From Patescibacteria group bacterium (GTDB lineage Bacteria; Patescibacteriota; Minisyncoccia; Moranbacterales; UBA2206): a stretch of DNA of 64,000 nt. The stretch is taken from the NCBI GenBank assembly GCA_030837625.1, contig JAUPKF010000002.1, positions 168-64,167 on the forward strand, read 5' to 3'. Each line of letters starts with the position of its first letter. Positions within the stretch are counted from its first letter, which is position 1. The translations under genes were made by a program, and so were the position numbers. The notes under the pieces were generated by a model. It saw only the letters and a list, made by a program, of their open reading frames with translations, had not been told where the DNA came from and did no database searches. Shown here one piece after another: positions 10,216 to 59,159 of this stretch.

Positions 10216-10455
10216 ATGAATACACCGGAAGATAAGAAAATTCTTATTACCAAAGAAGAGATGAAACAAATCCTCGAAGAAGAGGGGGCGGGCTATAATT
10301 TCTACCACTATGATCACTGGTTCGGCGTCCGCGTTGCCGCTGCGCTCTACTACAATGGACAGGAGATCAAGATCTGGCAATATGAAATGGATGCAGAACG
10401 ATTTCGGAAATATGTCCGCGAGCTTGTCCGGGCAAAGAAGCTCTATAATTGCTAA
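10216..10455 (+). CDS. hypothetical small protein (79 aa)
   Basis: strong RBS (aaaaggagaagg) 6 nt upstream of the ATG; followed by terminator hairpin 10498-10546. Confidence 0.55.
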   Translation: MNTPEDKKILITKEEMKQILEEEGAGYNFYHYDHWFGVRVAAALYYNGQEIKIWQYEMDAERFRKYVRELVRAKKLYNC

Positions 10456-10497
10456 CGCACTTTTAAAGCAGCTGATAGTTCCTTAACCACAACGTTT

Positions 10498-10546
10498 CGC
10501 CCGGACGCGTTCACCGCGAGCGCATCCGGGCTTTTTTATTTTTCAA
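10498..10546 (+). terminator. rho-independent terminator
   Basis: gcccggacgcgttcaccgcgagcgcatccgggc hairpin followed by ttttttatttttc. Confidence 0.6.
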
Positions 10547-10589
10547 AAATTCGTTATAATCACAACAATAATTAGCTAAGAAAAAAATA

Positions 10590-11048
10590 TGCTGGAAAAG
10601 CGAACAACTATTCTCGACCTTTTCGCCGAAAATGAACTCAAGATCAGCGAGTTATATGCCATATACTCCCGGAGATTTCCCGCTCATAAGGATTTCTGGA
10701 AAAAAACTTTCCGGTGAAGAAATTGTTCACTCTCAAGAAATTAAAGCGATGAAACAAGACAACTTTGAGAAGAATTTTCAAGAGAATAACTTTACCCGCG
10801 GCATCATCAAGTATGTCAGCAATTATGTGGACGAACAGCTCGAAGCCGCCAACAGCAAAAAACTTACCGTCGAAGAAGCGCTAAACATCGCTCTCCGCGT
10901 CGAGCAGTCTATGCTGGAAAAAAAATGTTTCGAAATTTTCATCCCAAACCACTCCACTCTCAAAGACGTGCTGGATCGTCTGAATAAAGACACCGACCGC
11001 CACGCCAATATGCTTCGTAAAGAACTGGAAAAAATTGCTAAGAAGTAA
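10590..11048 (+). CDS. hypothetical protein, possibly frameshifted at an A7 run (10590-10715 frame 1; 10632-11048 frame 2)
   Basis: the ATG at 10590 opens a 42-codon ORF (MLEKRTTILDLFAENELKISELYAIYSRRFPAHKDFWKKTF) that ends just after ggaaaaaaac, where the listed 138-aa ORF continues in the +1 frame. Confidence 0.45.
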   Translation, partial: CWKSEQLFSTFSPKMNSRSASYMPYTPGDFPLIRISGKKLSGEEIVHSQEIKAMKQDNFEKNFQENNFTRGIIKYVSNYVDEQLEAANSKKLTVEEALNIALRVEQSMLEKKCFEIFIPNHSTLKDVLDRLNKDTDRHANMLRKELEKIAKK

Positions 11049-11057
11049 ATCAACTTG

Positions 11058-11129
11058 TGTCCCCGCCAAGAATCGAACTTGGATCCAGAGCTTAGGAGTC
11101 TCTTGTTCTATCCGTTGAACTACGGGGAC
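11058..11129 (-). tRNA. tRNA-Arg(CCT)
   Basis: acceptor gtccccg/cggggac, D-arm gttcaacggatagaac, anticodon loop ctCCTaa, T-loop ttcgatt. Confidence 0.75.
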
Positions 11130-11142
11130 AGTAAATTCTTCG

Positions 11143-11215
11143 TGGACCCGAGGAGACTCGAACTCCTTACCTCCGCAATGCGAATGCGGCGCTCTACCAG
11201 ATGAGCTACGGGCCC
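11143..11215 (-). tRNA. tRNA-Ala(CGC)
   Basis: acceptor gggcccg with G3:U70 identity pair, anticodon stem ccgca/tgcgg with loop ttCGCat. Confidence 0.85.
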
Positions 11216-11324: not shown

Positions 11325-11396
11325 GCGGCATTTCGGGCAGGGAACCAGTGACAGCCCGAATGTGAATCGAGCGCTCTAATTTATCCCCCCACCAAT
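11325..11396 (-). pseudogene. degenerate tRNA-Val(CAC)-like 3' portion (outer copy) adjacent to the intact tRNA-Val(CAC)
   Basis: reverse complement ggggggataaattagagcgctcgattcacattcgggctgtcactggttccctgcccga has an anticodon arm ctcga/ttCACat/tcggg but a degraded T-arm and acceptor; it parallels the intact outer copy at 28078-28150. Confidence 0.45.
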
Positions 11397-11400
11397 TGGG

Positions 11401-11474
<74 letters not shown>

Positions 11475-11534
11475 AATTGGTGGGGGGACGAGCTGAGCTA
11501 ATCGTCCAATAAATAGTACTGACACTTTTGATTG

Positions 11535-12830: not shown

Positions 12831-12992
12831 TTATATATATTGCCAGAAAAAAATAAGTCCACATCGGACTTAGTGTTTTTTTAAAAAGAACTACTCGCAG
12901 TTTAGCACAAAGTTATTGAAAAAAGTAATTTTGTCCTCCCGCCAACACTGCTTTTCTTACTTTCTTAAAATACGCTATAATATAGCCAGTTT

Positions 12993-15083
12993 ATGGATAA
13001 TATTAAAACACTTTTTAAGAAAACAAAAAATCAACCAATTGATATATGGCTTTTCTTTTTATTTTTGTTGAGTTTTTCCTTAAGCGTAAGGAAAGTAGTC
13101 GACTATTTTCCTGTCGAAAGAACTGATCAAAGAACTTTTAATGAGTATGCCGGCATATACGTTTATATGTCCGATATATTCTTGACACTAGCCATAGTTT
13201 GTTGGATAGTATCTATACTATATAATAACTATATAAAACAGTCAAGTGTCAAGCTGTGGATAACTCTTCTTGTCCACAGAATACTCCTATATTTTAAAAA
13301 TATTGTTCCACCTGCCCGCTATGCTTCGAAATTTCACGCCGATAGTATTATCAGCAAAACCGTAAAACCTGACAAAGAAGGTACTCTGTCCCAATTGCAT
13401 AGCGAAGCAGGCGGGCGTGGAACAATCAAAAATAACGAGGCAGACGTGGAACGATTTTCTTTACAGGCTAGCATATTGTTTATTATTCCTTTGCTTTTAG
13501 TCATTTGGTCATTCATTTCGACTTTTTGGGCAAAAAATGAAACCGTTGCTTTATTTCGATCAATTAAACTGCTTGAGTTTTACCTACTATATGTTTACGT
13601 CGCCTTGCGATTAATTCCATTGTTCCATGCGGAACATAAATCAGCAACAATACTTACGAAAAACCAATCACACTACACCCCTCACGAAAATAGCTTCGAC
13701 AAAGTATCTATGATTGTTCCACGTGGAACAATCATAGGTGTCAAAGTGTTTGATGTATTTATATGGTTAATAATATTTATAGGCGTATTTCAGTCAATTA
13801 TCGCCATTTGGCAGTTCATAATCCAACACTCTGTCGGATTATTTTGGCTAAAGGAAAGCCTAATTTCGCCGGATGTTCCAGGAGTAGCTAAAATAGTTCT
13901 CAATAGTCATAAAATAATCCGGGCATACGGACTGTTTCCACATCCAAATATACTGGGCGGATTCTTACTGTTCTCAATAATTCTAACATTACTATACAAA
14001 AAATGTTCCACGTGGAACAATGCTAATGGTATTTCAACTGTTCTACATCAGTCTGCCGATAAAGCAAGCCAAACGATTGAAATAACCACCTGGACATCTC
14101 AAACCATTCGCTTTTTAACGAAAAAGTTAAGTTTGAGAAAAGTATGGCTTATCCAAGCCTCCCTGTTTATTCAGGCTTTGGCCTTATTTCTGACATTTTC
14201 CAAATCAGCCATAATCGGGATTATAATTGCTTTGGTATATATTAATGTTCCACCTGCCCGCTATGCTTCGAAATTTCACGCCAATAGTAGTATTGATAAA
14301 ACCGTAGAGTCTAATACAGAAGGTACTATGTCCCAATTGCATAGCGAAGCAGGCGGGCGTGGAACATATGATAAAAAATGGATATACAAAATGTTCCACG
14401 TGGAACAATGGCATGTGTTTTCCTTGGGTAGTAGAAAAGTAAGCAATACAAACAAGGCCAATAAAAATTCTCGTAATGGTAATTCCGTTGTTCCACGTGG
14501 AACAATGGGCAACAACCCACTGAAAGCCCAAAGTCACTCACTTTTCGGCAGAAAAGTCATTTTAATTCTGGTAATCCTTATTCTAAGCCTTTATTTGGCA
14601 AAGCCCGATTTAAGCGCTCTTTTTACCAAAAGCCTCAAAGAAAGGCTCTTTTATCTGAACGTTGCTTATGAGACAATTTTAGATAATCCGATCATTGGAG
14701 TGGGAGCGGGACAGTTCGTGTTGAACATTCCGCAGTATGCCAACCAAACTGTGGAACAATGGCAATTCCAACCCGTCCATAACATATTCCTACTAATTTG
14801 GTCGGAATTAGGTTTGGTCGGAGTGGGCGTATTTTTATGGTTTTTATGGGCTATTTGGAGAAAATCTATATTAAGCAATGATAGTCTAAACTTGTCAACT
14901 GCATTAATTCTGCGCTATTTCAAAGCAATTTTCCTCGGCTTTCTCTTTATTATGCTTTTCGATCACTATTTATGGGACATCCAACAGGGAAGCCTGCTAT
15001 TATGGACAACCCTCGGACTAATTGCCAGCATAGATAAAAGTTCACAAAGCTACCTAAATACAGAGAACCGACGGGGTTTATAG
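12993..15083 (+). CDS. O-antigen ligase (Wzy_C/WaaL)-like polytopic membrane protein carrying six in-frame repeat-element insertions
   Basis: C-terminal Wzy_C-like region (NPIIGVGAGQFVLN...QPVHNIFLLIWSELGLVGVGVF); two about 120-bp MITE copies (13304-13434, 14246-14366) are translated as VPPARYASKFHA...SQLHSEAGGRGT; four 16-bp palindromes tgttccacgtggaaca are translated as MFHVEQ/CSTWNN/VPRGT. Confidence 0.7.
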   Translation: MDNIKTLFKKTKNQPIDIWLFFLFLLSFSLSVRKVVDYFPVERTDQRTFNEYAGIYVYMSDIFLTLAIVCWIVSILYNNYIKQSSVKLWITLLVHRILLYFKNIVPPARYASKFHADSIISKTVKPDKEGTLSQLHSEAGGRGTIKNNEADVERFSLQASILFIIPLLLVIWSFISTFWAKNETVALFRSIKLLEFYLLYVYVALRLIPLFHAEHKSATILTKNQSHYTPHENSFDKVSMIVPRGTIIGVKVFDVFIWLIIFIGVFQSIIAIWQFIIQHSVGLFWLKESLISPDVPGVAKIVLNSHKIIRAYGLFPHPNILGGFLLFSIILTLLYKKCSTWNNANGISTVLHQSADKASQTIEITTWTSQTIRFLTKKLSLRKVWLIQASLFIQALALFLTFSKSAIIGIIIALVYINVPPARYASKFHANSSIDKTVESNTEGTMSQLHSEAGGRGTYDKKWIYKMFHVEQWHVFSLGSRKVSNTNKANKNSRNGNSVVPRGTMGNNPLKAQSHSLFGRKVILILVILILSLYLAKPDLSALFTKSLKERLFYLNVAYETILDNPIIGVGAGQFVLNIPQYANQTVEQWQFQPVHNIFLLIWSELGLVGVGVFLWFLWAIWRKSILSNDSLNLSTALILRYFKAIFLGFLFIMLFDHYLWDIQQGSLLLWTTLGLIASIDKSSQSYLNTENRRGL
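13304..13434. mobile_element. MITE copy (gttccacctgcccgctatgcttcgaaat ... agcgaagcaggcgggcgtggaac) inserted in-frame in the ligase-like gene
   Basis: same TIR core (ctgcccg..atgcttcgaa / ttcgaagcaggcggg) as the intergenic copies at 18853, 24778 and 39521. Confidence 0.65.
13718..14512. repeat. four dispersed 16-bp perfect palindromes tgttccacgtggaaca (near 13720, 14010, 14392, 14493); putative joined-TIR footprints
   Basis: identical palindromes matching the gttccac...gtggaac ends of the two full MITE copies in the same ORF. Confidence 0.55.
14246..14366. mobile_element. second in-frame MITE copy, nearly identical to 13304-13434
   Basis: gttccacctgcccgctatgcttcgaaatttcacgcc...ttgcatagcgaagcaggcgggcgtggaaca. 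Confidence 0.65.
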
Positions 15084-15159
15084 AAAAATAGGCAGAATAA
15101 TAAAGTAGAGCCGAGGCAATGCCTCGGCTCTACGCGTTTATATAATGCGCGTCTGTGGA

Positions 15160-17628
15160 TTATAATACCGTACTCGCCGATACTTTATCGCCTGGCTGCG
15201 GCCGCATAACCCTCACGCCTTGGGTGGCTCGGCCGAGAGCGGAAACGCTGGAAAGGGGAATGCGAATGATCTGGCCTTGTTCGGAAGTAAGAATTAAATC
15301 GGCTTCCAGCGCGTCAAGGTTCACAACATTGGCACCGATAAGTTTGCCGGTTTTAGCCGTCACACTGGCGGTTTTAATTCCCGATCCGCCGCGCTTTTGA
15401 ATTTTATATGATTTCAGATCCGATCTTTTGCCATAACCGTTTTCAGTAATAATCATCAGCTGATTGCCTTTTTGCCCTTTGAACGTTACGTCCATCCCGA
15501 CAACTTTGTCATCTGATTTCAATTTCATGCCCCGCACGCCGGTAGCTGACCTGCCCATCGGACGAACATCCGATTCTTTGAAGCGAATGGCTTGGCCACC
15601 CCGGGTAGCGATAACTATTTCGTCCGATCCAGTGGTAGCGTCCACCCAGCGAAGCGCGTCGCCTTTTTCCAGCTTTATGGCCAAAAGTCCGCTGCGGCGA
15701 ACATTGTCGAATTCGTCCAGGGTTGTTTTTTTGACCGTGCCGTTTTCCGTCGCCATAAAAAGATACTTGTAATTATCATCCTTGTTAAACGCCACCACCG
15801 CTGTTACTGACTCTTCCTGCGAAAGAGACAGGAAATTGACAATCGACTGACCCTTGGCAATCCGGGTCGATTCGGGAATTTCGTACGCCTTGGTCTGAAA
15901 AACTTTTCCCGTATTGGTAAAGAAAAGCAAGTTATCGTGCGCCATAACGCCCAAGAGTTTGGTAATTTCGTCGCCCTCCTTGGTAGTCGCCCCAATCACG
16001 CCTTTTCCTCCACGTTTTTGAACTTTGTAAACAGTCGGATTCATCCGTTTGATATAGCCTTCTTTGGAAATAGTGATAATGGCTTCTTCGTTTGGCACAA
16101 GATCTTCCTGTTTAAATTCTCCCACCGCGCCTTTTATAATCCGGGTTTTTCTTTCGTCGCCGTATTTTTCTTTAACACGCGCCAATTCATCCTTCACGAT
16201 ACCCAGAATTTTTTTCTCGCTTTTCAAGATTGCTTCCAGTTCGGTGATAAGTTTCAGTTTTTCCGCCAGCTCGTCTTCAATCTTCTTTCTTTCCAACCCG
16301 GCCAGAGTTTGCAAACGCATTTCCAAAATAGCCGTAGCTTGTTTTTCTGAAAGCTTGAATTTCTTTATCAAATTCCTGTGCGCTTCCTCTTTGGTGGGGG
16401 ATTTCTTGATCGTTTCAATAACCGCGTCAATATTGTCCAACGCGATTTTCAAGCCTTCCAAAATATGGGCTCGGTCGCGGGCTTTTTCCAAATCAAATTT
16501 GGTCCTTCGAGCAATGACGATTTTCCGATGCGCCACATATTCTTCCAAAATATCTTTCAGATTTAGGACTTTCGGTTCAATTCCGCCGACAAGCGCCAGC
16601 ATATTGACGCCGAAATTCTTTTGGAGATCGGTATAAGAATAAAGCTTATTGAGAACTTTCTGGGGATAGGCGTCTTTTTTGAGATCAATTACCACTCGCA
16701 CCCCGTCTTTGCTGGATTCGTCGCGAATGTCTCTGATACCGACTATCTTTCCCTCGCGCACCAAATCAGCCATTTTTTCAATAAGCGTGGCTTTGTTGGT
16801 GGCATAAGTCATTTCGGTCACGATTATTTGGAACGCTCCGGCTTTGGTTTCGGTAATTTCGACTTTAGCCCGGGTAAGGATTTTTCCCCGTCCGGTGCGA
16901 TACGCTTCTAAAATGTCTTTTTTGTTGTAAATTATGCCGCCGGTCGGAAAATCAGGCCCTTTCACGAATTCCCCCAGATCGTCCACCGACGCTTCTGGGT
17001 TTTCGATCAGATGGCTTATGCCGTCGATAAGCTCCGTAAGGTTATGCGGAGGAATATTAGTCGCCATTCCCACGGCGATTCCCATCGAACCGTTGAGGAG
17101 AAGCTGAGGAAGGCCGGCCGGCAACACGGTCGGTTCCTTGTGCTGGCCGTCAAAATTGGGTACAAAGTCCACCGTATCTTTTTCAATATCAAAAAGCATT
17201 TCCTCGGCAATGGCGGAAAGCTTGGCTTCGGTGTATCGATAAGCCGCTGGAGAATCGCCGTCCATTGAGCCAAAGTTTCCCTGACCGCGAACAAGCGGGT
17301 AGCGCAAAGAAAAATCCTGAGCCATGCGTACCATCGAATCATACACTGCCACGTCGCCGTGCGGATGATATTTCCCCAACACTTCTCCCACTACTGTGGC
17401 CGATTTTCGAAATTTGGCGTTAGCGCGCAGTCCCGTGTTCCACATGGAATATAAAATCCTGCGATGGACCGGCTTCAAGCCGTCTCGCACGTCCGGCAAA
17501 GCTCGCGCCACAATCACGCTCATCGCGTAATCCAGATAGGATTGGGAAATTTCCTCAGTTATCTCGCGAGGAGTGACATTATTTGGTTGAATATTCTCTT
17601 GTGGTTTGGTGTTTTTATGCATAATCAA
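15160..17628 (-). CDS. gyrA: DNA gyrase subunit A
   Basis: 822 aa; the active-site Tyr region is the [10 protein letters not shown] motif in the N-terminal DNA-breakage domain; multiple C-terminal beta-pinwheel repeats. Confidence 0.95.
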
Positions 17629-18852: not shown

Positions 18853-18995
18853 AGTTTACGAACTACCTGCCCGAAATGCTTCGATACTAAATCAGATTAA
18901 TAATTTCTGACGGTTTAGTTTAAGTTGTCCAAGAAGTACTTAATAACAACTTGGCATTTCGAAGCAGGCGGGCGAAATTAACGAAATACGAAATT
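18853..18995. mobile_element. MITE, about 140 bp (tttacgaactacctgcccgaaatgcttcga ... ggcatttcgaagcaggcgggcgaaattaacgaaatacgaaa)
   Basis: 26-bp terminal inverted repeats; paralogs at 24778-24928 (inverted) and 39521-39665. Confidence 0.75.
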
Positions 18996-24777: not shown

Positions 24778-24928
24778 AATTCGTATTTCGTACATTCGTA
24801 CAAATTCGCCCGCCTGCTTCGAAATGTTAAGCGGCTATTAAGTACCCAACCCTGTCAGATTATATTTTTAAAAAAACCTATTACCAGCTCAATTAGTATC
24901 GAAGCATTTCGGGCAGGTAATTCGTAGA
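24778..24928. mobile_element. MITE (ctgcccgaaatgcttcga family), inverted orientation
   Basis: ttcgtatttcgtacattcgtacaaattcgcccgcctgcttcgaaatg ... atcgaagcatttcgggcaggtaattcgtag. Confidence 0.75.
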
Positions 24929-27952: not shown

Positions 27953-27988
27953 CAGGGGTCTGTAGCTCAGCTCGTCCCCCCACCAATT
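27953..27988 (+). pseudogene. 5' part of an outer tRNA-Val(GAC)-like gene (acceptor + D-stem 5' strand) interrupted in its D-loop
   Basis: gggtctgtagctcagct then cgtccccccaccaattgg leads into the inner tRNA; together with 28078-28150 it folds as a tRNA with a 6/7-paired acceptor. Confidence 0.45.
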
Positions 27989-28062
27989 GGGTGTTTAGCT
28001 CAGCTGGTTAGAGCGCCACATTGACATTGTGGAGGTCACTGGTTCGAGTCCAGTAATACCCA
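27989..28062 (+). tRNA. tRNA-Val(GAC), nested inside the D-loop of an outer tRNA-Val-like gene
   Basis: acceptor gggtgtt/aataccc, anticodon stem ccaca/tgtgg with loop ttGACat, T-loop ttcgagt; flanked by the 18-bp perfect inverted repeat ccccccaccaattgggtg / cacccaattggtgggggg. Confidence 0.85.
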
Positions 28063-28077
28063 CCCAATTGGTGGGGG

Positions 28078-28150
28078 GATAAATCAGAGCGCTACATTGA
28101 CATTGTAGAGGTTTCAGAGGTTCGAGTCCTCTCACGCCCACAGGAAGTTT
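28078..28150 (+). pseudogene. 3' part of the outer tRNA-Val(GAC)-like gene (D-stem 3' strand, anticodon arm, T-arm, acceptor 3' strand)
   Basis: ataaatcagagcgc tacattgacattgta(anticodon GAC) gaggtttc agaggttcgagtcctct cacgccc a. Confidence 0.5.
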
Positions 28151-28165: not shown

Positions 28166-28458
28166 GGGACCATAGCTCAGCGGTAGAGCAGGCGGCTCAA
28201 AAAATATTTAGGGCTGTTTGAGAAGTAATTTTCAAGCGAATATCTGTCAAACTCGGGGAAACCTAAGGCGCCAAAAGCGCTACGGCAATCCCGAGCCAAG
28301 CCCCGACGCGTGTCGTGGAAGGTGTAGAGACTAGACGGCAGACATCCCGATATCATCGGGATGAAGGGATAGTCCAGCTCCCAAACTCGAGAGGGGTTGC
28401 GAAAGCAATAGTGAGAAGCATAACCGCTTGGTCGCTGGTTCGAATCCAGCTGGTCCCA
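28166..28458 (+). tRNA. tRNA-Met(CAT) (elongator-type or tRNA-Ile2 precursor) interrupted by a group I intron; exons 28166-28197 and 28419-28458
   Basis: exon1 gggaccatagctcagcggtagagcaggcggct + exon2 cataaccgcttggtcgctggttcgaatccagctggtccca folds into a canonical cloverleaf with anticodon CAT; G1:C72, so it is not an initiator. Confidence 0.8.
28198..28418 (+). other. group I intron (221 nt) in the anticodon loop of tRNA-Met(CAT), inserted after U33
   Basis: 5' exon ends in U and the intron ends in G; conserved group I core elements R (gtgtagagactagacgg) and S (gaagggatagtccag) pair gacta/tagtc to form P7. Confidence 0.75.
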
Positions 28459-28501
28459 CAGATAAAAAACTCGACTTTTTAAAAAGCCGAGTTTTTTAAA
28501 T

Positions 28502-29491
28502 TTATTTTTTTCTTCTCCTTCCGTGAAACGCTTGATGGACTTCTTTGAGCTGCTTGTTGGTAACGTGGGTGTAAATTTGGGTGGTGGTGATGGAAGAATG
28601 GCCGAGCATAGCTTGCACCGAGCGGATGTCGGCGCCATTAATCAGTAAATCCGTAGCAAAAGAATGGCGAAGCGTGTGCGGATGGACATCTTTGACAATT
28701 CCGGCTTTGGCGGCGTAATATTTGACGATTCTCTGGACGGAGCGGGGGGTTAATCTTAAACCAGCGTTATTATCCGTAGGGGTTCGATTAATCGAACCCC
28801 TACTTTTATTTTCGAATTTTGCCAGTCCTTTAACATCTCTCACAAACAAAGCCGGATCAATATCCATCCGCTTATCCAGATACGTCTCCAGCGCTTTCTT
28901 GGCACTTTCTGAAATAAAAACCACCCGAATTTTGTCGCCTTTTCCTCGCACGGAGAGTTCCCCGGATCCCAAATTCAACTTATCCCGATTGATGCTGACG
29001 AGTTCCGATACTCGCATTCCGGCCGAAAAAAGCATCTCCAGCATCGCTCGGTCGCGAAGCGACTTAAAATCAATTCCAGACGCCGCCCCGATAATCCTTT
29101 CCACTTCTTCCGGTTCCAAAAATTCAATTTCGCGCGCCGGAGATTTCCCAATCTCGACCTTTTCCGCGATCAATGTCTTAATGTCCCGCTTTGCCAGATA
29201 TTTAAGAAAGCTTCGAAGGGCTATAACGTAATAGCCCTGGGTAGCTTTTTTCAAGCCTTTTCCATTCTCATCTTTGTAGCGGCTCAGATGCAAGCGAAAG
29301 TTTCTTACCAATTCATCTGTAATTTCGGACGGCTTCGCTATTTTTGCCCAATCAAAAAACACCCGCAAATATCGACTATAATTTTCAATAGTCTTTTGCG
29401 AACGGTTCTTTTCTATTTCAAGATATTCCAGAAACTGAGTTTTTAGTCGCTCAATTCCACTTTTTTGTATCTTTTCTGTTTCATGTTTCAT
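28502..29491 (-). CDS. xerC: tyrosine site-specific recombinase (XerC/XerD-like integrase)
   Basis: catalytic region HTLRHSFATDLLINGADIRSVQAMLGHSSITTTQIYTHV; N-terminal SAM-like core-binding domain; 3' end lies 44 bp from the tRNA-Met 3' end. Confidence 0.85.
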   Translation of the reverse strand: MKHETEKIQKSGIERLKTQFLEYLEIEKNRSQKTIENYSRYLRVFFDWAKIAKPSEITDELVRNFRLHLSRYKDENGKGLKKATQGYYVIALRSFLKYLAKRDIKTLIAEKVEIGKSPAREIEFLEPEEVERIIGAASGIDFKSLRDRAMLEMLFSAGMRVSELVSINRDKLNLGSGELSVRGKGDKIRVVFISESAKKALETYLDKRMDIDPALFVRDVKGLAKFENKSRGSINRTPTDNNAGLRLTPRSVQRIVKYYAAKAGIVKDVHPHTLRHSFATDLLINGADIRSVQAMLGHSSITTTQIYTHVTNKQLKEVHQAFHGRRRKK

Positions 29492-33736: not shown

Positions 33737-34027
33737 TTAATTTTTGTCTACGCCAGTTACTTTCCCCATGTAATCAAACATTTTTTCCTCGAGTATTTTT
33801 TCCCAAGCATCAGCTTCTCTCTGCAAATGACATAGTGCCCATTTAATTTCTCGGGTAGCACTAAGACTTTTTAGGAAATCATTTCTTGAACTCAAGTCAG
33901 CTTCTGAGTTTAGTTCGGCCTCTATCGTGATAGTTCTTTCGCCATCCGAAATCTGAACCATAACTTTTCTTATACTCACATCGCTCTCCTTTTTAATGAG
34001 CTGTTTGTTATTTGCCATACCTTTCAT
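33737..34027 (-). CDS. hypothetical protein (96 aa)
   Basis: intact ORF upstream of and co-oriented with the 57-aa ORF. Confidence 0.45.
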   Translation of the reverse strand: MKGMANNKQLIKKESDVSIRKVMVQISDGERTITIEAELNSEADLSSRNDFLKSLSATREIKWALCHLQREADAWEKILEEKMFDYMGKVTGVDKN

Positions 34028-34135
34028 TTCTCATCTTAACAACCCATTATATATCAAAATATACTTTTTGTCAATATTGATTGATGATAATAAATATGAT
34101 ATTATGAAGCCATAAATAAGCTAATATCATAAATT

Positions 34136-34903
34136 ATGTCAAATAATATTGATAAAAACAAAAAAAGCGAAATTCTGACGGACTTAAAATCACTCGGCTT
34201 AAGCGAGAAAGAAATAGAAGTATATATCGCCCTTTTGGGCTTGGGGGAAGTGGGAAGCTCAAAAATAGTTAAAAAAACCGGCCTTCACGGCCAATTCGTC
34301 TACAATGCGCTTGGTAGTTTGGAAGAAAAAGGCTTAGTTGGACATATAATCAAGCGTGGGAGAAAAAAATTCAATGCTAAAAATCCTCGTGTTTTGGAAA
34401 GACTAGCCGAGCATCAAAAAAGAATCGCTCAAAGCGTGGCGGAAAAGCTTAATCAAATAATGGTTTTACCGGCCGAACAAGAATATGAGGTTTTTCAGGG
34501 CAAAGAATCCTATATCGCGCACGAATTCGAACTTCTGGAAAAAGCGGACGAGAATAGCGAGTTGCTAATTATCGGAGGATCGGGTGATGAATTTATCGCC
34601 CATATGAAAGATGAATTTAAGAGATACGAGAAAATAAGGAGAAACAAAAAAATTCGCATAAAGTACCTCGGAAGCGAAGACCAGTTGGAATATTTAAAAG
34701 ATAACGCTAAAAGTAGGGATTTCTTTGAGTATAAAGTCCTGCCCGGGCTTTTTACTGGAATGGTCAACACTAATATTTGGCAAGGATTTATCGCATTCAA
34801 TATTTTTGGAGAACCAGTCACAAGTTTTGTAGTTTTAAATCCAATTATCGCCAGCTCCTACAAGCAATTCTTTGAAACTTTATGGCGATTAGCAAAAAAA
34901 TAG
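34136..34903 (+). CDS. TrmB-family transcriptional regulator
   Basis: HTH LGLSEKEIEVYIALLGLGEVGSSKIVKKTGLHGQFVYNALGSLEEKGLV; paralog of 9246-10010 and 35929-36672. Confidence 0.75.
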   Translation: MSNNIDKNKKSEILTDLKSLGLSEKEIEVYIALLGLGEVGSSKIVKKTGLHGQFVYNALGSLEEKGLVGHIIKRGRKKFNAKNPRVLERLAEHQKRIAQSVAEKLNQIMVLPAEQEYEVFQGKESYIAHEFELLEKADENSELLIIGGSGDEFIAHMKDEFKRYEKIRRNKKIRIKYLGSEDQLEYLKDNAKSRDFFEYKVLPGLFTGMVNTNIWQGFIAFNIFGEPVTSFVVLNPIIASSYKQFFETLWRLAKK

Positions 34904-34924
34904 GGCTTTTGCCACAAGGGTTCC

Positions 34925-34960
34925 GGCGAGTTTGCGCAGTGCGCAGCTCGCCTTTTTTTA
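34925..34960 (+). terminator. rho-independent terminator
   Basis: ggcgagtttgcgcagtgcgcagctcgcc hairpin followed by tttttttatttg. Confidence 0.65.
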
Positions 34961-35057
34961 TTTGAAAAAGAAGTTATCCACAGATAATCCTTGCGCAAAG
35001 CTGGACAAATCTTATTTAAAATGATACTATATCACTGTAATAATTTAATCCAACAAA

Positions 35058-35894
35058 ATGGAGAAAACAAAAATTGCCTTATGGCAAGGAAATGAAATCA
35101 GAAGAACAATTTTTGACAATACTTGGTGGTTCGTTGTGGAAGATATAGTATTGGCACTCATTGATTCGAATGACCCTAAACAATACATACAAAGAATGAA
35201 ACAACGAGACGAAGAATTAACCAAAGGATGGGTACAAATTGTACATACCCTTGATGTGCCAACTAAGGGCGGCAAACAAAAAATGAATTGCGCCAATGTT
35301 GAAGGCATTCTTCGTATAGTTCAATCTATCCCATCCTCCAAGGCCGAGCCATTTAAACGCTGGCTGGCGAAAGTGGGCTATGAAAGAGTGCAGGAAATTG
35401 AAAATCCAGAGCTAGCAGCTCAAAGAGCAAGAACACTTTATCGCGTCAAAGGTTATCCCGAAAGCTGGATAGAAAAAAGAATGCGTGGAATTGAAGTGCG
35501 AGAAACCCTGACCAATGAGTGGAAAAATCGCGGCGCTAAAGAGAATATCGAATTTGGAATTCTTACCAATGAAATTTTGAAAGGCGCTTTCGATATGACA
35601 GCGGGAGATTATAAAAAATTCAAAGGCCTAAAAAGAGAGAGCTTGCGCGATCATATGGACGACATCGAACTCGTCCTTACCATACTCGGCGAAGCGACCA
35701 CCACCCGACTTCATCAAGGCAGAGATTCTCGGGGATTTCAACCACTTAAAAAGGATGCGAAAGACGGCGGAGATATCGCCGGCAGAACCAGAAAGGACAT
35801 CGAGCAAAAGTTAGGCAAACCGGTAATTTCCAGAAAAAATTTCAAACATTTGAACAATAAGAATAAACTGAGAAGCGGCCGAAGTTTACAATAA
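35058..35894 (+). CDS. Bro-N domain protein (DinD / phage antirepressor-like)
   Basis: N-terminal Bro-N-like region (WWFVVEDIVLAL...); a typically phage-associated family. Confidence 0.6.
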   Translation: MEKTKIALWQGNEIRRTIFDNTWWFVVEDIVLALIDSNDPKQYIQRMKQRDEELTKGWVQIVHTLDVPTKGGKQKMNCANVEGILRIVQSIPSSKAEPFKRWLAKVGYERVQEIENPELAAQRARTLYRVKGYPESWIEKRMRGIEVRETLTNEWKNRGAKENIEFGILTNEILKGAFDMTAGDYKKFKGLKRESLRDHMDDIELVLTILGEATTTRLHQGRDSRGFQPLKKDAKDGGDIAGRTRKDIEQKLGKPVISRKNFKHLNNKNKLRSGRSLQ

Positions 35895-35928
35895 TCATTG
35901 TAAAGATCCTCAATAAAGAGCAAGCAAT

Positions 35929-36672
35929 TTAAAATACGACGCAAGAGCGGACAGTCAAATCCCAAATCACTTCAAAAAAACTTTTTTGCGTGTCGTGGAT
36001 TTTCTGGCTTTCAATAATAATCGCGATTTCTTCGTCATAGGACACCAGACCGACTTTATTATTCCCATAAATCACCATTTCAATTTCAACTTTGAACTTA
36101 TCCGACAAAACCAACTTGCTTTGAAAAAAATGCTCTTTTTCGTTTTGGGCAACACCTCGAAGTTCCGGATTATCCTGAAAAAGAATTCTCGCCCAGATCT
36201 TTTTCTCTTTTCTTTTGGGAATGAAGTATTCCGTGAAGTAATTACCATAATTCCAAAATTTTTCATTGAACGTGCCTAACATTTCGTTGTCCGGATATTT
36301 CAAAACATCGCCAAAAACATCCTTGTAGGATTCTTTTCCTTCGAAATAACGAATTTTGGGCTTTTTGTCGATGAGATTGTTAAAAGCCAGAAGCTCCGGC
36401 AGAATTTTGTCGAGAGCTCTTTTCTTGTTTTCGAGCATTTCCGCGAGCTTTTTAGGGTTCTCGGCATAGCAAATAATGACGTTATTGCGATGATATTCAC
36501 TCATTAAGCCTTTTTCTTTCAAGTTTTCCACCGCCAAATACGTCGTCGTCCTTTTTACGCCAGATTTCTTAGCCAGGCGATAGACGCTAGTTTCCCCCAA
36601 TTCCAACGCCGCCATATATACTTTAGCCTCGTTTTCGCTTAATCCAGCATTTTTTAGTTCATCAATATGCAT
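35929..36672 (-). CDS. TrmB-family transcriptional regulator
   Basis: HTH AGLSENEAKVYMAALELGETSVYRLAKKSGVKRTTTYLAVENLKEKGLM. Confidence 0.75.
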   Translation of the reverse strand: MHIDELKNAGLSENEAKVYMAALELGETSVYRLAKKSGVKRTTTYLAVENLKEKGLMSEYHRNNVIICYAENPKKLAEMLENKKRALDKILPELLAFNNLIDKKPKIRYFEGKESYKDVFGDVLKYPDNEMLGTFNEKFWNYGNYFTEYFIPKRKEKKIWARILFQDNPELRGVAQNEKEHFFQSKLVLSDKFKVEIEMVIYGNNKVGLVSYDEEIAIIIESQKIHDTQKSFFEVIWDLTVRSCVVF

Positions 36673-36897
36673 GATTTCGATACTTTAGAGTTACTGTCAT
36701 CAATTATGACGACACTACGATTGTAACATATAATATAAAAAATGCAATGTTAAAGCCACTAATATTATACTTGCCATGTTCGTACTCTCTTGATTAGTCT
36801 CTCTGTATGGACTAATAGCCGAAATAATGTTATACTACGCAGTCAAGCTGGAGAAGGGCTTCAGTAAGACAAGAACCTTAAAAAATGGAGACGGAAA

Positions 36898-37224
36898 ATG
36901 AAGAAGAAAAAAGCATCGATAGAAGAAATTATCGCCGTAATCAAGAAGATTAGGGACGACTACGAAATTGGAGAACGGGTCTGTGAAAAGGTGCTTGAAA
37001 AATATAAGAGTGGCGAGTTAACGTATTACTACGAAACTGAAGAAATGGACCTCTACTACCTTAGGATACAAATAGAAGCGAATATCGAAAAAACCTTACG
37101 GGATTCTTGGCTACCAAGCATATGTTACGGGCCACGTGCGGGGAATAGTGGCATCTTTGTTGAGTTATCGCCCCAGAATACTTTAAAACCATACTTTTGG
37201 AGAGTTAAACGACGAGGAAGATGA
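36898..37224 (+). CDS. hypothetical protein (108 aa)
   Basis: GGAG RBS; its stop overlaps the start of the next gene (atga), indicating an operon. Confidence 0.5.
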   Translation: MKKKKASIEEIIAVIKKIRDDYEIGERVCEKVLEKYKSGELTYYYETEEMDLYYLRIQIEANIEKTLRDSWLPSICYGPRAGNSGIFVELSPQNTLKPYFWRVKRRGR

Positions 37225-37874
37225 GAAGTTTTCAGAAGAAAGGAGGTGACAGTTCTTTTACCACAAGGGTTTTGGCGGGCATGTGCAAAGCATACACATC
37301 GCTCGCCTTTTTTATTATTCAAAAATTATGGTATAATAAGCAAATGCGAAAAGAAAAACAAAATTTAGAAGAAGTTGTTATTGATCCAGGAACAAGGGCC
37401 AAGTTTTTGGCAGGAATACTTGATAAGCAAACCAAATTGCTCCAACATTTAGATTCTCAAACAAATATCTTAATCGGCATCAGCTCGGCTATGTTTGCAT
37501 TCATGACTGCCGGATTTCGTCTTAACAACTTGTCCTGGCCGCAAATCATCCTTGGATTCTTCTCGGCATTAACAGCTCTATTAGGTTTGTATGCGATACA
37601 TCCTCCAAGATTCATGAGGAAAAAGGGTCAAAAAGAAAGCGTCATGTATAGCGGTAAGATATCTGATTTTTCTTCTCCTTCTATTTACAAGAAAGAGCTG
37701 GGAAACATTGTATCTGATCAAAATAAAATGCTCGAGCAATATTCGATAGAAATATACAACGTGGCTAAATATTATTATGACCCCAAACGCAAAATTTTCA
37801 AAATTGCCCGCAACATTCTTTTGATTGGGTTTTTTATAAGTATAATACTTTTTTTGGCGCCTCTATTTTCCTAA
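37221..37874 (+). CDS. hypothetical membrane protein (2 central TMs + C-terminal TM)
   Basis: translationally coupled to 36898-37224; TMs ILIGISSAMFAFMTAGF, IILGFFSALTALLGLYAI, ILLIGFFISIILFLAPLF. Confidence 0.5.
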   Translation: MRSFQKKGGDSSFTTRVLAGMCKAYTSLAFFIIQKLWYNKQMRKEKQNLEEVVIDPGTRAKFLAGILDKQTKLLQHLDSQTNILIGISSAMFAFMTAGFRLNNLSWPQIILGFFSALTALLGLYAIHPPRFMRKKGQKESVMYSGKISDFSSPSIYKKELGNIVSDQNKMLEQYSIEIYNVAKYYYDPKRKIFKIARNILLIGFFISIILFLAPLFS

Positions 37875-37937
37875 ACATAAACAGCCAACAATCTTTTATA
37901 TCCAGAAAATAACGAGTACAACTCGTTTTTTGTTTGC

Positions 37938-38534
37938 TCATAAGTCTTCTTTGACAAATCGCAATTTCTTGGATTCATACCTGAAACCTTTTGCCGGAGT
38001 ATACCTTATTTGAAGATGGAACCCTTTCACTATTTCATCCAGCGCTTTGTTGGAACTTTTCCCATTATCCAAATCAGCAATCGCCCTTGACATATCATAG
38101 CCGAAAAAGGGATTCAGATCCCCCTCAATCAACTGTGTACTCTTGGTTTTTCTCAAAGTTATATACCCACATACCTCTCCCGTGTCAATATCTCTTTGGG
38201 CGATATGCATAGCATTTTGCCTTGAACCGAATTTTTGCGATAAAAAATGACCCAAGTCATCCCCACTGGGAGTGGCGACCAACATAGGTTCTTCTTCTCT
38301 GCCAACAAAAGAGTGCTCATGCAGAGTCGAATAATTTCCTGAATAATCCCTGGTTGCCAATTCAGTCTTTTCCATATCGACGTCGACGCTATCTCGGGAT
38401 GATACTTTCGAAACGTCGACCATCTCCTTGCCAGGCACGCGCAAATAAGCATGCTCGACAGCAGGATCGGTTTTTTCAATAATTTCTTTCGGGCTGATTT
38501 TTTTAATCACTCCTTCATATTTTGATTCTTTCAT
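37938..38534 (-). CDS. hypothetical protein (198 aa)
   Basis: intact ORF, no recognised motif. Confidence 0.45.
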   Translation of the reverse strand: MKESKYEGVIKKISPKEIIEKTDPAVEHAYLRVPGKEMVDVSKVSSRDSVDVDMEKTELATRDYSGNYSTLHEHSFVGREEEPMLVATPSGDDLGHFLSQKFGSRQNAMHIAQRDIDTGEVCGYITLRKTKSTQLIEGDLNPFFGYDMSRAIADLDNGKSSNKALDEIVKGFHLQIRYTPAKGFRYESKKLRFVKEDL

Positions 38535-38754
38535 ACTCTTTTTTTAAAGTTAACCTTTTAAACGACGCTTCCTGTTTCTAATATTACCAAAATCAACCCG
38601 CAACATCAAGAACATGTACAAGTCCACCCACAATATGCAATTGACTGGACAAAAGTCCATTTGTAGTATATGGTTAATCCATAATAATCTTATCTAGCCG
38701 ACACTGGTTTTGCCGACGGGGGATTCCCGCAACGAGTGTCTGGCCGAAAAAACT

Positions 38755-39521: not shown

Positions 39522-39665
39522 TTTACGAACTACCTGCCCGAAATGCTTCGACGCTATCTGAGGTTAAATAATAACCTACGAGCTGAATTAGTTAATCAGT
39601 GTCGATAATAAGCAACCAGTTGGCATTTCGAAGCAGGCGGGCGAAATTAACAGCATACGAAAAAT
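39521..39665. mobile_element. MITE (ctgcccgaaatgcttcga family)
   Basis: aatttacgaactacctgcccgaaatgcttcgacgc ... ggcatttcgaagcaggcgggcgaaattaacagcatacgaaaaatg. Confidence 0.75.
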
Positions 39666-53464: not shown

Positions 53465-53863
53465 ATGCCAAACAAAATCCAAAATCCCAACAAAAATAGC
53501 AACAGCTACGACCTCATAGAAAGAACGGCTAAATTTGGAGAAGATGTTATTGAGTTTGCCGGAACATTACCTAGAAATGAAATTAATCGACCACTTTTAA
53601 GTCAAATAGTGAGATCTGGAACAAGCATTGGAGCTAATTATATGGAAGCCGATGGAGCAGTATCGAAAAAAGATTTTGAAAACAAGATTGGCATTTGCCG
53701 AAAAGAAGCTAAGGAGAGTATGCATTGGTTTAGAATGATTGCCAAAGCCAACCCGAACCATAAAGACAAATGCAGAGAGCTATATAAAGAATCCCAGGAA
53801 TTTGTATGGATATTTTCATCCATCATAAATAGTTCCAAAAACAACAGCAAGAACAAAAAATAA
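53465..53863 (+). CDS. four-helix-bundle protein (TIGR02436-like)
   Basis: YDLIERTAKFGEDVIEF...SQIVRSGTSIGANYMEADGAVSKKDFENKIGICRKEAKESMHW, typical of this family. Confidence 0.7.
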   Translation: MPNKIQNPNKNSNSYDLIERTAKFGEDVIEFAGTLPRNEINRPLLSQIVRSGTSIGANYMEADGAVSKKDFENKIGICRKEAKESMHWFRMIAKANPNHKDKCRELYKESQEFVWIFSSIINSSKNNSKNKK

Positions 53864-53920
53864 TTGTGATTTGGGATTTTATTGGATATTGAGATTTTGT
53901 CATTGAGATTTTTGAAAGCT
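53862..53920. repeat. GGATTTT repeat / duplicated leader
   Basis: aattgtgatttgggattttattggatattgagattttgtcattgagatttttgaaagc, near-identical to 52380-52440. Confidence 0.6.
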
Positions 53921-53924
53921 TTTT

Positions 53925-56060
53925 ATGTTAAATATAAAAATAAAAAATAACTTAATTCTGGCTGTCTTTTTTATCATGGCGGTTGTTTTGGGATTTGGCG
54001 CCGTCAAAGTCGAAAGCGCAAGCGCTTGGGATTGCGTCTGTGCAGGGAAAAACCTTACAGATCCAGGAACAATCATTCGCGTAAAGTGTAATGACACTGG
54101 TTGGTGGCCAACTCAAGACTGTAGAGATGTCTGTAGTAAGGATTGTAAAGATAAAGGATTTACCGGAGGAGTAATATCAGTAACAGGAGCCCCTCCTGGA
54201 GCCAAGATGGAAGGAGCAAATGATGTATGCCAAGGGCTTGGCATTACCACCGCCAGCGTATCCACATTGTTCAATTGTCTATTGCTTCATGTACTAAACT
54301 TTTTAACTTGGATTCTACAGGCAGCGGCATCCCTTTTTATAGCCATAATCGATCCGAAAAATTTAACCGATGTTATAAGCAATAAAATCATATACGAGAT
54401 ATGGACACTGGTTAGAGACACACTGAACGTCGCTTTTATTTTGACGCTTCTTTTTTCCGCCTTCGCTACTATTTTCCAGGTAGACAAATTCAGCTATAAG
54501 AAAATCCTCCTCACGCTCGTCATTATGGCGCTTCTGGTCAATTTCAGTTTTCCTATCGCCCGCGTCATTATTGATTTCTCCAATGTCATAATGTATTACT
54601 TTCTCAATGGACTTGAGTTCAAACTTCAAAACAAGACAGGAATAAGCAGCTTGTTCTCCAACATAGCCGATTTTGGAAGACTTAAAGACATTTTACATCC
54701 TAAGGCTGGAATTTATGCAGATACTTCATACCTGGTAGCCTCCGTTATTTTTGTTTTCATTTTGGGAGTAACTTTCCTGACTATCGCTATCCTATTCGTT
54801 ATACGAACCATCGCTCTAGGCGTCCTAATGATTTTCTCTCCTCTGGCCTTTGTCGGATCAATTGTCCCATTTCTTTCTTCCCACGCCAGCAAATGGTGGA
54901 CTAATCTTTTCAATTATTCTTTTTTTGGACCAATAATGGTTTTTATGATCTATGTTTCCGTGAGAATGATGGACTCGATTAGCGTTGCAGGAGCATCCAT
55001 AGACAGCATTGCATCCACCACGTCCGGAGACCCAAGCGTTGTTGCGGCTATCTCATTTTTTGCCATTCCCATCGTCATCCTTTGGATCGGCATCGGCACC
55101 GCGCAAAGTATGTCCATCGCCGGCGCCGGCGCGGTAGTGGGGAGAGCGAATAAGTTTATGAATTGGGCGGGAATGAAGTTCAGTGGCCTTGATTGGGGAA
55201 ATAGAAGACTTAAGGCGTACCAAACAGAAAGAAAGAAAAGAGCAGATGAACGATTCAAGGATAATTGGGGTCAAAGATTGGGACGAAGTATCAACAGGAC
55301 ACAAGACAGAATTCATGGCGCATTGCCTATCCCAGGCAGAGCAAGAGCTCAAAGAAGATTGGAGAATTTGCACAATGCCGACGTCAGAGAACATATGCAA
55401 AGAATCAATGACATAACAAATGAAGATGAGCTAGCAAATCTATTTGATCAAGCAGGAAGTGAGGCTGAAAGGGAAGCTATTCTTAGAAGAGCGGCTGCAA
55501 TTGGCGGCACAAGCACCATTTTGAATAGAGCAGGACAAACCAACGACATTGATGGTTTCACCACTTTCATGCAAAATAACTTCGGAAATACTGACAGATC
55601 GGCAAGGCTCGCATCTACAATATCTGGTTTGGAGAGCGCTCGACACAATACTCAATTTAGCGGAGTTTCATCATATGTTGGAAATCAATATCAATATAAT
55701 CAAGGAACGCCTGGTGGAGCGAATCGCATCGATGATGCGGTTTTCGCCGCAGTTGCTGGAGAACATCAGCAAAATATGTTCAGGAACCTAAGAGCCGGGC
55801 AAATAGTTACACGGGGTGCCGGAGGAAACATAGTAGGAATGAACAACCAATTTGAAGCTGTTTTGCAAAGAGTGGGGGATGATGCCTTGTTCGGCCAATA
55901 TATAACTCCGGCCGCGGGAAATAACAATTATCAATTAAATCAAGTTCCTCAAGCTGTTGTTGACCAATTGACACAAGCGGTAAACGCGGGACACCTACCA
56001 CCTGCCGGATCAAGAACGGAAGCCTTCTTTGAAGCTCTTAGAGCACAAGGAAGAATTTGA
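53925..56060 (+). CDS. VirB6/TrbL-like polytopic membrane protein with N-terminal Cys-rich ectodomain and Gln/Asn/Gly-rich C-terminal tail
   Basis: signal peptide; 8-Cys module (WDCVCAGKN...KCNDTGWWPTQDCRDVCSKDCKDKGF); at least 8 TMs; low-complexity tail; neighbours are VirB3/VirB4 homologs. Confidence 0.6.
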   Translation: MLNIKIKNNLILAVFFIMAVVLGFGAVKVESASAWDCVCAGKNLTDPGTIIRVKCNDTGWWPTQDCRDVCSKDCKDKGFTGGVISVTGAPPGAKMEGANDVCQGLGITTASVSTLFNCLLLHVLNFLTWILQAAASLFIAIIDPKNLTDVISNKIIYEIWTLVRDTLNVAFILTLLFSAFATIFQVDKFSYKKILLTLVIMALLVNFSFPIARVIIDFSNVIMYYFLNGLEFKLQNKTGISSLFSNIADFGRLKDILHPKAGIYADTSYLVASVIFVFILGVTFLTIAILFVIRTIALGVLMIFSPLAFVGSIVPFLSSHASKWWTNLFNYSFFGPIMVFMIYVSVRMMDSISVAGASIDSIASTTSGDPSVVAAISFFAIPIVILWIGIGTAQSMSIAGAGAVVGRANKFMNWAGMKFSGLDWGNRRLKAYQTERKKRADERFKDNWGQRLGRSINRTQDRIHGALPIPGRARAQRRLENLHNADVREHMQRINDITNEDELANLFDQAGSEAEREAILRRAAAIGGTSTILNRAGQTNDIDGFTTFMQNNFGNTDRSARLASTISGLESARHNTQFSGVSSYVGNQYQYNQGTPGGANRIDDAVFAAVAGEHQQNMFRNLRAGQIVTRGAGGNIVGMNNQFEAVLQRVGDDALFGQYITPAAGNNNYQLNQVPQAVVDQLTQAVNAGHLPPAGSRTEAFFEALRAQGRI

Positions 56061-56075
56061 TTATTTTAGACTTAT

Positions 56076-57383: not shown

Positions 57384-57452
57384 CCCGATTCGAATCTACG
57401 AATAGCATTCGTAAATTCGCAGATTTGTAGACATTCGTTGATTCGAATCGGA
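57384..57452. mobile_element. REP/MITE (ccgattcgaatctacgaat...attcgttgattcgaatcgg)
   Basis: starts at the taa stop; terminal inverted repeats ccgattcgaatc / gattcgaatcgg. Confidence 0.7.
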
Positions 57453-57460
57453 TAAAGATT

Positions 57461-57850: not shown

Positions 57851-57888
57851 CCCGATTCGAATCTACGAATGAATCCGAATTCACGAAT
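57851..57888. repeat. REP/MITE left-half element
   Basis: cccgattcgaatctacgaatgaatccgaattcacgaat, starting at the stop codon; contains the atgaatccgaat used as the start of the next ORF. Confidence 0.65.
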
Positions 57889-58307: not shown

Positions 58308-58311
58308 TATT

Positions 58312-59152: not shown

Positions 59153-59159
59153 CTAAATT

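Follow-up and report, generated by a model that had tools for sequence, protein, structure and literature searches.

A putative parS cluster within a conserved O-antigen-ligase-like gene of Moranbacteria-like Patescibacteria, with two sites split by a hairpin repeat

How can a single membrane-protein gene hold a series of 16-bp palindromes and two long, near-identical repeats and still remain open? The question is raised by an open reading frame (ORF) at 12993-15083 in a 64,000-nucleotide stretch, referred to here as the window, of contig JAUPKF010000002.1 from a Patescibacteria group bacterium (assembly GCA_030837625.1). A first-pass annotation made from the sequence alone explained this ORF by six in-frame insertions of one miniature inverted-repeat transposable element (MITE), two of them copies of about 120 bp and four of them palindromic footprints. 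The reading that we favor, with a probability of about 0.84, is that the product of the gene is a conserved O-antigen-ligase-like membrane protein and that the same DNA is the chromosome's centromere region, a cluster of parS sites of which two are split by a hairpin repeat.

Palindromes of the parS type in a Wzy_C-like gene

The ORF encodes 696 residues without an internal stop, while the other five frames contain 26-53 stops apiece, in agreement with the earlier statement that it stays open across the inserts. Its product matches the Pfam family Wzy_C (PF04932, O-antigen ligase) with an E-value of 1.2e-11 and 45 bits (cut-off 31.7). An identical 696-residue protein has been deposited, annotated as hypothetical, with a metagenome-assembled genome labeled 'Patescibacteria group bacterium', and the homologues of this protein are mostly annotated as Candidatus Moranbacteria. 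Because the same gene architecture was found in independent assemblies from ENA, JGI and NCBI, the repeats in the gene are not an assembly artefact, which disposes of the collapsed repeats that had been named as an alternative. Rfam searches of the whole window at the gathering threshold, and of the gene at E-values up to 10, returned nothing relevant on the palindromes or inserts; the only real Rfam hits in the window were tRNAs and a group I intron, all outside the gene.

The gene and its intact or decayed sites are listed below; L121 is the orthologous locus of a close relative, with GyrA 94% identical over 624 residues.

12993-15083, forward strand: gene for a Wzy_C/O-antigen-ligase-like polytopic membrane protein, host of the putative parS cluster (ORF, Pfam, AlphaFold and invariant residues)
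13621-13636, unstranded: degenerate parS TGTTCCATGCGGAACA, two mismatches, read as LFHAEH, aligned with a perfect parS in L121
13715-13730, unstranded: perfect parS, read as VPRGT
14004-14019, unstranded: perfect parS, read as CSTWN, conserved at the aligned position in L121
14392-14407, unstranded: perfect parS, read as FHVEQ
14489-14504, unstranded: perfect parS, read as VPRGT

Six matches to the core GTTCCACGTGGAAC with at most two mismatches were recovered from the 64 kb, where 0.11 would be expected, and five of the six lie in 12993-15083. Four of these are perfect (starting at 13716, 14005, 14393 and 14490), confirming the four perfect palindromes reported earlier, and one starting at 13622 has two mismatches. 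The perfect sites are confined to less than 1.2 kb of this one gene, with none elsewhere in the window.

The full palindrome, TGTTCCACGTGGAACA, agrees with the canonical chromosomal parS at all 16 of its 16 bases. In P. aeruginosa, parS2 and parS3 are this same 16-mer (PMC4368675), which also conforms to the consensus TGTTNCACGTGAAACA of chromosomal parS in general (PMC7022226). Clusters of such sites bound by ParB/Spo0J include the four oriC-proximal sites of P. aeruginosa and 22 in M. xanthus (PMC4368675, PMC7022226), and 9 of the 10 parS sites of strain PAO1 are intragenic (PMC4368675). In a scan of one genome per bacterial species, the exact 16-mer was found in many phyla, including Pseudomonas, Myxococcus, Sphingomonas, Bacteroidota, Acidobacteriota and Planctomycetota, often as 2-5 copies within a few hundred bases and sometimes beside tgtttcacgtgaaaca variants. 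Of 120 sampled 8-kb loci holding the exact 16-mer, 25 encode a ParB with a GERRxRA box. A tie between the palindrome and Wzy_C genes in all bacteria was considered and rejected, as a hidden Markov model (HMM) of the family found no match among the palindrome-covering ORFs of 120 loci from other phyla. Sequence comparison thus identifies the four 16-bp palindromes as probable parS sites and not as transposon scars.

Conservation of the sites and of the reading frame

VPRGT, FHVEQ and CSTWN are the three reading frames of TGTTCCACGTGGAACA. In a first protein alignment, homologues 46-61% identical to the window protein carried VPRGT, FHVEQ/FHVEH or CSTWN at the same loop positions, and the member of the trio, and hence the frame, found at a given position differed between orthologues. 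A word-index search recovered at least one parS peptide in 118 of 120 homologues, with exact counts of 261 for VPRGT, 110 for FHVEQ and 159 for CSTWN where composition alone predicts about 0.01. An index-free phmmer search, which removes the possible word bias of the first, matched 350 clusters at E <= 1e-30, and a parS peptide was present in 106 of 113 further representatives of clusters at 50% identity. Taken over the 233 homologues collected, which range from 250 to 924 residues and fall into more than 150 clusters at 50% identity, parS peptides occur in about 95%.

At the DNA level, the palindrome was perfect in every homologue case checked. Four orthologous loci, together with the window, were compared more closely:

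L121/L122 orthologue: 6 perfect 16-mers, none with one mismatch
L123 orthologue: 7 perfect 16-mers, 1 with one mismatch
L124 orthologue: 9 perfect 16-mers, 3 with one mismatch (up to 12 in 1.2 kb)
L127 orthologue: 3 perfect 16-mers, none with one mismatch

Every site at these four loci lies inside the gene, and the 10-kb flanks hold none. Among the five orthologues, identity at the third positions of invariant fourfold-degenerate codons is down to 27%, which means that these positions are saturated. The five genes nevertheless hold 29 perfect 16-mers, and therefore the palindrome is kept by selection on the DNA rather than by recency or protein function. In another Patescibacteria genome (L026), parS sites are found in and beside a tRNA-synthetase gene, so the association of parS with the Wzy_C gene is lineage-specific. 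The comparisons point to the Wzy_C-like gene as the conserved host of this lineage's parS cluster across a large uncultivated group, a description that replaces the 'hotspot for repeated insertion' proposed at first.

An AlphaFold model built on 65 homologues (predicted TM score 0.79) has a confident helical core, with which the hydropathy profile agrees. Segments with a predicted local distance difference test (pLDDT) below 50 (residues 105-144, 211-247, 349-366, 425-460 and 469-517) hold all of the parS sites and both long inserts, which places the inserts in loops, a point on which a topology prediction had been proposed. The best PDB match of the model is the WaaL O-antigen ligase 7TPG, at probability 1.00 with weak scores (E 0.0099, TM 0.54). 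Across the 65 homologues, 14 residues are invariant and about 60 nearly so; the Wzy_C loop, 537-597, carries the invariant R551 and H596. The corresponding loop is periplasmic in WaaL. When helices were counted outward from this conserved periplasmic loop, transmembrane-helix parity, together with the positive charge of the parS loops (net +7, +1 and +8; N-terminus +3), placed the parS loops on the predicted cytoplasmic side. The conserved extracytoplasmic loops are without inserts, except for a 'NVSRGT' found throughout the family, whose own DNA is a parS with one mismatch (TGTTTCACGTGGAACA in L124). That site has been lost in the window; L121 keeps it, split by a 34-bp hairpin.

The 16-mer has no stop codon in any frame, and the open frame is kept by ordinary purifying selection on the protein, which removes out-of-frame or stop-bearing variants. 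L127 offers the clearest sign of what looks like a dual constraint on DNA and frame. Here 23-bp units, TTGTTCCACGCCTGCCCCGTTAA, stand in tandem, and reading shifts from one to the next through three frames (VPRLPRE-LFHACPV-NCSTLAPL-IVPRLPRG-LFHVEQ), and the spacer ...CGTTAA is altered to GAGAG or GTGGA in the two units whose frame would give a TAA stop. The earlier proposal that retention of the frame reflects selection is upheld by these spacers.

The loops are also where the orthologues differ in length and content. The Wzy_C-like protein of the window is only 54-62% identical to that of L121, compared with 94% for GyrA, and the parS host gene therefore evolves unusually fast; most of the difference consists of in-frame indels in loops. 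In L124, a module of about 110 bp with three parS in three frames (FHVEQ...CSTWNN...VPRGT) is present as three copies in three loops (10670-10790, 10955-11070 and 11375-11490). In L127, half-site arrays flank full parS sites on both sides (10448-10600, 10825-10965 and 11111-11185), with tandem units of 23 bp on the left and 19 bp on the right that rotate through the frames; the G+C-rich junction CCTGCCCCG beside the parS halves is part of the 23-bp tandem half-site unit. Many homologues have split or nested forms such as VPPAS.AGGRGT, VPRPPAGEAGGT and VPRLPRG-MFHVEH-FLRGGT, and the junction TGTTCCACGCCTGCCCCG is read as CSTPAP, VPRLPR or FHACP.

The palindrome might instead be where another protein binds or recombines DNA, either an invertase or recombinase that reshuffles the loops to vary a surface or phage receptor, or a ParB-derived factor similar to Noc. 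The low identity of the loops beside that of gyrA (54-62% against 94%) and the copying of parS modules between loops (the three-site module of L124 in triplicate, the half-site arrays of L127) would fit such a role. However, the palindrome matches the universal parS at 16/16 bases, the loops are predicted to be cytoplasmic and not exposed at the surface, and no inverted variants were seen among the assemblies compared. No invertase lies beside the gene; the window's sole recombinase is found at a distance of 13 kb, and L124 too has a gene with these Pfam families, adjoining FtsH. We consider this explanation improbable.

Somewhat less probable again is that the palindromes are non-functional passengers, spread by slippage or gene conversion specific to this gene, with the working centromere elsewhere. 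Tandem and dispersed duplication of site-bearing modules is evident, and no ParB was found nearby (window and fetched flanks), as passengers would predict. Passengers would not be expected, however, to stay perfect where synonymous positions are saturated, or to persist in about 95% of some 230 homologues from more than 150 clusters, and no other parS was present in the 64-kb window or in any 10-kb flank.

A hairpin repeat within two of the sites

At 89% identity to each other, the long repeats 13301-13424 and 14243-14366 share one reading frame, VPPARYASKFHA(D/N)S...SQLHSEAGGRGT. Their description as two near-identical MITE copies in the same frame therefore stands, although not with the boundaries given: the element proper spans only 105 bp, or 35 codons (a length divisible by three), with the ends CCTGCCCG...CAGGCGGG, and the in-gene flanks GTTCCA and CGTGGAAC lie outside it. 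The element copies of the window and the parts of the sites that they split are:

13304-13310, unstranded: left part (TGTTCCA) of the parS split by element copy 1
13311-13415, forward strand: hairpin element copy 1, 105 bp, CCTGCCCG...CAGGCGGG, frame PARYASKFHAD...SEAGG
13416-13424, unstranded: right part (CGTGGAACA) of split parS 1
13438-13455, unstranded: degenerate second right junction AGGCAGACGTGGAACGAT, a G+C-rich end plus a parS right half-site, 83% identical to 13409-13426
14246-14252, unstranded: left part of the parS split by element copy 2
14253-14357, forward strand: hairpin element copy 2, 105 bp
14358-14366, unstranded: right part of split parS 2
18866-18972, forward strand: intergenic hairpin element copy, 107 bp, inside a TACGAA repeat array
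24809-24917, reverse strand: intergenic hairpin element copy, 109 bp
39533-39641, forward strand: intergenic hairpin element copy, 109 bp

Each in-gene copy sits within a parS, TGTTCCA^CGTGGAACA (the caret marks the insertion point), and deletion of 13311-13415 or 14253-14357 in silico restores a perfect TGTTCCACGTGGAACA. In L121, the loop of copy 2 holds a single intact parS, whereas the window is 243 bases (81 codons) longer there, the extra length consisting of the element and two additional parS; this was the comparison with a relative that the first-pass annotation had called for. Because deletion restores the sites and L121 holds an intact one, the inserts are true insertions, in which a MITE/REP-like hairpin repeat has entered parS sites that were already there. 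Of the six mobile-element insertions originally counted, the two 105-bp inserts thus remain, as members of a hairpin family, while the four palindromes are parS. The in-gene copies are 87% identical to each other and at most 63% identical to any other copy, and because of this closeness one insertion that was later copied into a second parS is just as likely as two separate insertions.

The five window copies fold as long hairpins (z -3.5 to -5) and have only their ends in common, ACCTGCCCG..ATGCTTCGA and TCGAAGCAGGCGGGCG. Eight more metagenome loci, recovered by a gapped-pattern scan of contigs, fix the ends as CCTGCCCG...CAGGCGGG and the length as 104-109 bp. The resulting family comprises 13 copies with common ends, 2 of them in a gene. 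The ends pair as imperfect stems of 6 and 7 bp (CCUGCC/GGCGGG and UGCUUCG/CGAAGCA), and interiors are 50-83% identical between copies with the GTACT motif alone shared. No target-site duplication was found at the 11 distinct insertion sites. Seven of these show an A^CG target, five as TA^CGAA in TACGAA arrays and two as CA^CGTG in the parS core. The element is small, non-coding and dispersed, with imperfect terminal inverted repeats and a filled versus empty site in the comparison with L121, all of which are features of MITEs.

Three further ideas about the element were rejected. RNAalifold on 12 copies returned the terminal stems only, with no covariation, which speaks against a structured RNA. 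An IS608-like insertion 3' of YYAC was set aside since the metagenome copies show the left end CCTGCCCG, and the common feature is A^CG, at only 7 of 11 sites. The inserts are also not stop-free in six frames: in-gene copies are open only in the used frame and one reverse frame, with stops in four of the five other frames, and intergenic copies have stops in nearly every frame. The suggestion that the elements as such tolerate translation is not borne out by these counts.

Two side observations concern the repeat. TACGAA(A/C/T) arrays surround the intergenic copies (18848-18865/18973-19000, 24780-24808/24918-24935 and 39520-39532/39642-39665; also in L128 and L129), and removing an intergenic copy restores one more TACGAA unit. 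At element positions 9-10, the in-gene copies have CTATGC...GCATAG (13319-13320/13401-13402 and 14261-14262/14343-14344), compared with AAATGC in the 11 outside copies and GCATTT in most of those. The change is doubly compensatory and lies in a helix in competition with the predicted terminal stem.

The first-pass annotation had taken the palindromes for joined terminal inverted repeats (gttccac|gtggaac), that is, excision footprints of the MITE seen in the 120-bp inserts. At first sight the element does seem to end in half-sites, since both in-gene copies are flanked by GTTCCA and CGTGGAAC. The three intergenic and eight metagenome copies, however, have CCTGCCCG...CAGGCGGG ends and unrelated flanks (GTTCCAC in 0 of the 11), and the bare palindrome is identical in distant phyla, near ParB genes. 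Furthermore, no intergenic element copy lies within 10 kb of the gene in L121, L123, L124 or L127, and orthologues without the element in that range still carry 6-12 perfect or one-mismatch palindromes. The idea of joined repeats is already contradicted, and we regard it as very improbable. Least probable of all, to the point of being negligible, is that VPRGT, FHVEQ and CSTWN are functional protein motifs with the DNA palindrome as a by-product: they do stand at helix-loop boundaries in many homologues, but these unrelated peptides correspond exactly to the three frames in which one 16-mer can be read, the frame in a given loop changes from one orthologue to another, a rotation that contradicts a role as motifs, and the DNA is perfect in every case checked.

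Proposed role, known systems and genomic setting

In the proposed parS reading, the four perfect palindromes would be ParB loading sites, a fifth would have decayed and two more would be interrupted. By analogy with studied bacteria, ParB dimers would bind the intact sites, load as clamps dependent on cytidine triphosphate and spread; as in ParABS systems, the spread ParB would then mark the region for ParA-driven segregation and for loading of SMC. The sites lie only in long disordered loops, probably cytoplasmic, where extra residues are tolerated, and the frame decides which of VPRGT, FHVEQ and CSTWN is encoded by a 16-mer that is stop-free in all of them. Rapid change in these loops comes from modules with parS that are gained, lost or duplicated in frame. 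The hairpin repeat inserts without target duplication, mostly at A^CG, a target that the parS core CA^CGTG offers one base from its dyad.

Several points weigh against this reading. Motif scans and an HMM built from 26 ParBs were used to look for ParB, and no ParB, ParA or DnaA gene was found in the 64-kb window or the fetched flanks (L026, L121-L135). Along the window, cumulative GC skew declines steadily and never turns. ParB is assumed to be the protein that reads the sites. The target preference of the element rests on 11 distinct sites, and Pfam scans of the 42 window proteins found no transposase.

The window is enriched in DnaA-box-like 9-mers (32, compared with 13.6 expected), some of them in or near the gene:

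13255-13278, unstranded: DnaA-box-like 9-mer pair, TGTGGATAA (perfect, 13255-13263) and, 6 bp further, TTGTCCACA (one mismatch, 13270-13278), encoding LWIT..VH
12992-13000 and 15154-15162: other DnaA-box-like 9-mers

Of the 5 orthologues, 4 have the perfect box (LWIT) at the same loop, and 43 of 233 homologues have xWIT. A more far-reaching version of the parS reading, which we regard as unlikely although somewhat less so than any of the rivals above, would make the gene a dedicated centromere scaffold: coupled transcription, translation and membrane insertion would tether ParB-parS and the DnaA boxes to the membrane, and a hairpin repeat preferring CA^CG could tune the number of active sites. 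If true, it would supply an origin anchor for tiny cells that otherwise lack one.

The sites themselves are ordinary parS, and as in known chromosomal clusters an identical 16-bp palindrome recurs several times in a short stretch, where an intragenic location is common. Unlike in known clusters, the whole cluster lies in one conserved ORF (with 4-7 sites in the window and as many as 12 within 1.2 kb in L124), the host gene and its gyrA neighborhood are conserved across a large uncultivated lineage, all three reading frames are used, half-site arrays and split sites accompany the full ones, and no parAB operon was found nearby in the window or fetched flanks. What we see as new is the confinement of the cluster to a single conserved ORF, with host gene and neighborhood kept across more than 150 sequence clusters, the rotation of sites through three frames, the half-site arrays under ORF constraint, and the splitting of centromere sites by a hairpin repeat. 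Literature searches combining parS or ParB with Patescibacteria, taxa of the Candidate Phyla Radiation or O-antigen ligase found nothing relevant, with incomplete coverage.

The centromere of the F plasmid, sopC, consists of 12 tandem 43-bp units. The tandem half-site units of 19-23 bp and the thrice-repeated three-site modules of the orthologues resemble such iterated plasmid centromeres, but those described here lie within an ORF that constrains them. For in-frame palindromic inserts, the closest precedent is the Rickettsia palindromic elements (RPE), which Ogata et al. in 2000 reportedly described as palindromic repeats in frame within protein-coding genes. As with RPE, a palindromic repeat of about 100 bp stands in frame in an ORF, is apparently read as an extra surface or loop segment and leaves the host protein intact. 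Unlike RPE, the element occupies a gene in only 2 of 13 copies, is not designed to be free of stops, has parS as the site of both in-gene insertions, and does not include the bare 16-mers. The closest precedents for the repeat itself are REP, ERIC and Correia elements, which, like MITEs, it resembles in its size (104-109 bp), lack of coding capacity, complementary ends, long hairpin and dispersed intergenic copies in several genomes; it departs from such repeats in its strongly differing interiors and in the lack of a transposase among the window proteins, and from classical MITEs in the lack of target-site duplication. The insertion sequence IS1397 inserts into REP units, and members of IS200/IS605 insert next to a short target without duplicating it. 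The short preferred target A^CG and the missing duplication are shared with IS200/IS605.

The immediate neighbors of the gene are:

15105-15133, unstranded: terminator-like hairpin, bidirectional, between the convergent Wzy_C and gyrA genes
15160-17628, reverse strand: gyrA, conserved neighbor of the parS-bearing gene (synteny in L121, L123, L124 and L127)

gyrA adjoins the Wzy_C-like gene in all five genomes, the window included, and NMO and Lactamase_B_3 genes are the usual further neighbors. Elsewhere in the window, a tRNA gene at 28167-28460 (forward strand, apparently with anticodon CAU) holds a group I intron in its anticodon loop (28188-28394; Rfam RF00028, 71.3 bits, full-length match), a split tRNA that ARAGORN does not call. 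In the region 27960-28145, the 3' part of tRNA-Val (27988-28066) is incompletely repeated behind it (about 28080-28142), and inverted ccccccaccaattgg/ccaattggtgggggg flank tRNA-Val. A tyrosine recombinase gene lies just downstream (28502-29491, reverse strand), and the arrangement may be an integration scar. A cluster resembling conjugation or type IV secretion systems lies at 53465-61000, with a TraG/VirB4-like ATPase (59160-60974) and PrgI (57461-57850); T4SS_pilin genes are found in L126, a second assembly's matching contig. At 53465-53863 lies a gene for a 23S rRNA intervening-sequence protein. The low-GC stretch 34000-38600 (0.37-0.39), with two TrmB-type regulators, a Bro-N protein and a weak match to a Pycsar effector (PycTM), may be a mobile or defence island.

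The literature searched contained nothing on chromosome segregation in Moranbacteria-like Patescibacteria. The parS cluster described here would give these uncultivated, small-genome bacteria a simple sequence marker of their partition locus, and its parS-bearing segment could help to stabilise plasmids in genetic tools for these organisms. It would also explain the VPRGT, FHVEQ and CSTWN peptides and the wide length variation of the protein family, and suggests that a hairpin repeat is able to split centromere sites. One stretch of DNA would then carry two codes, a centromere array and a conserved membrane protein written on the same bases.

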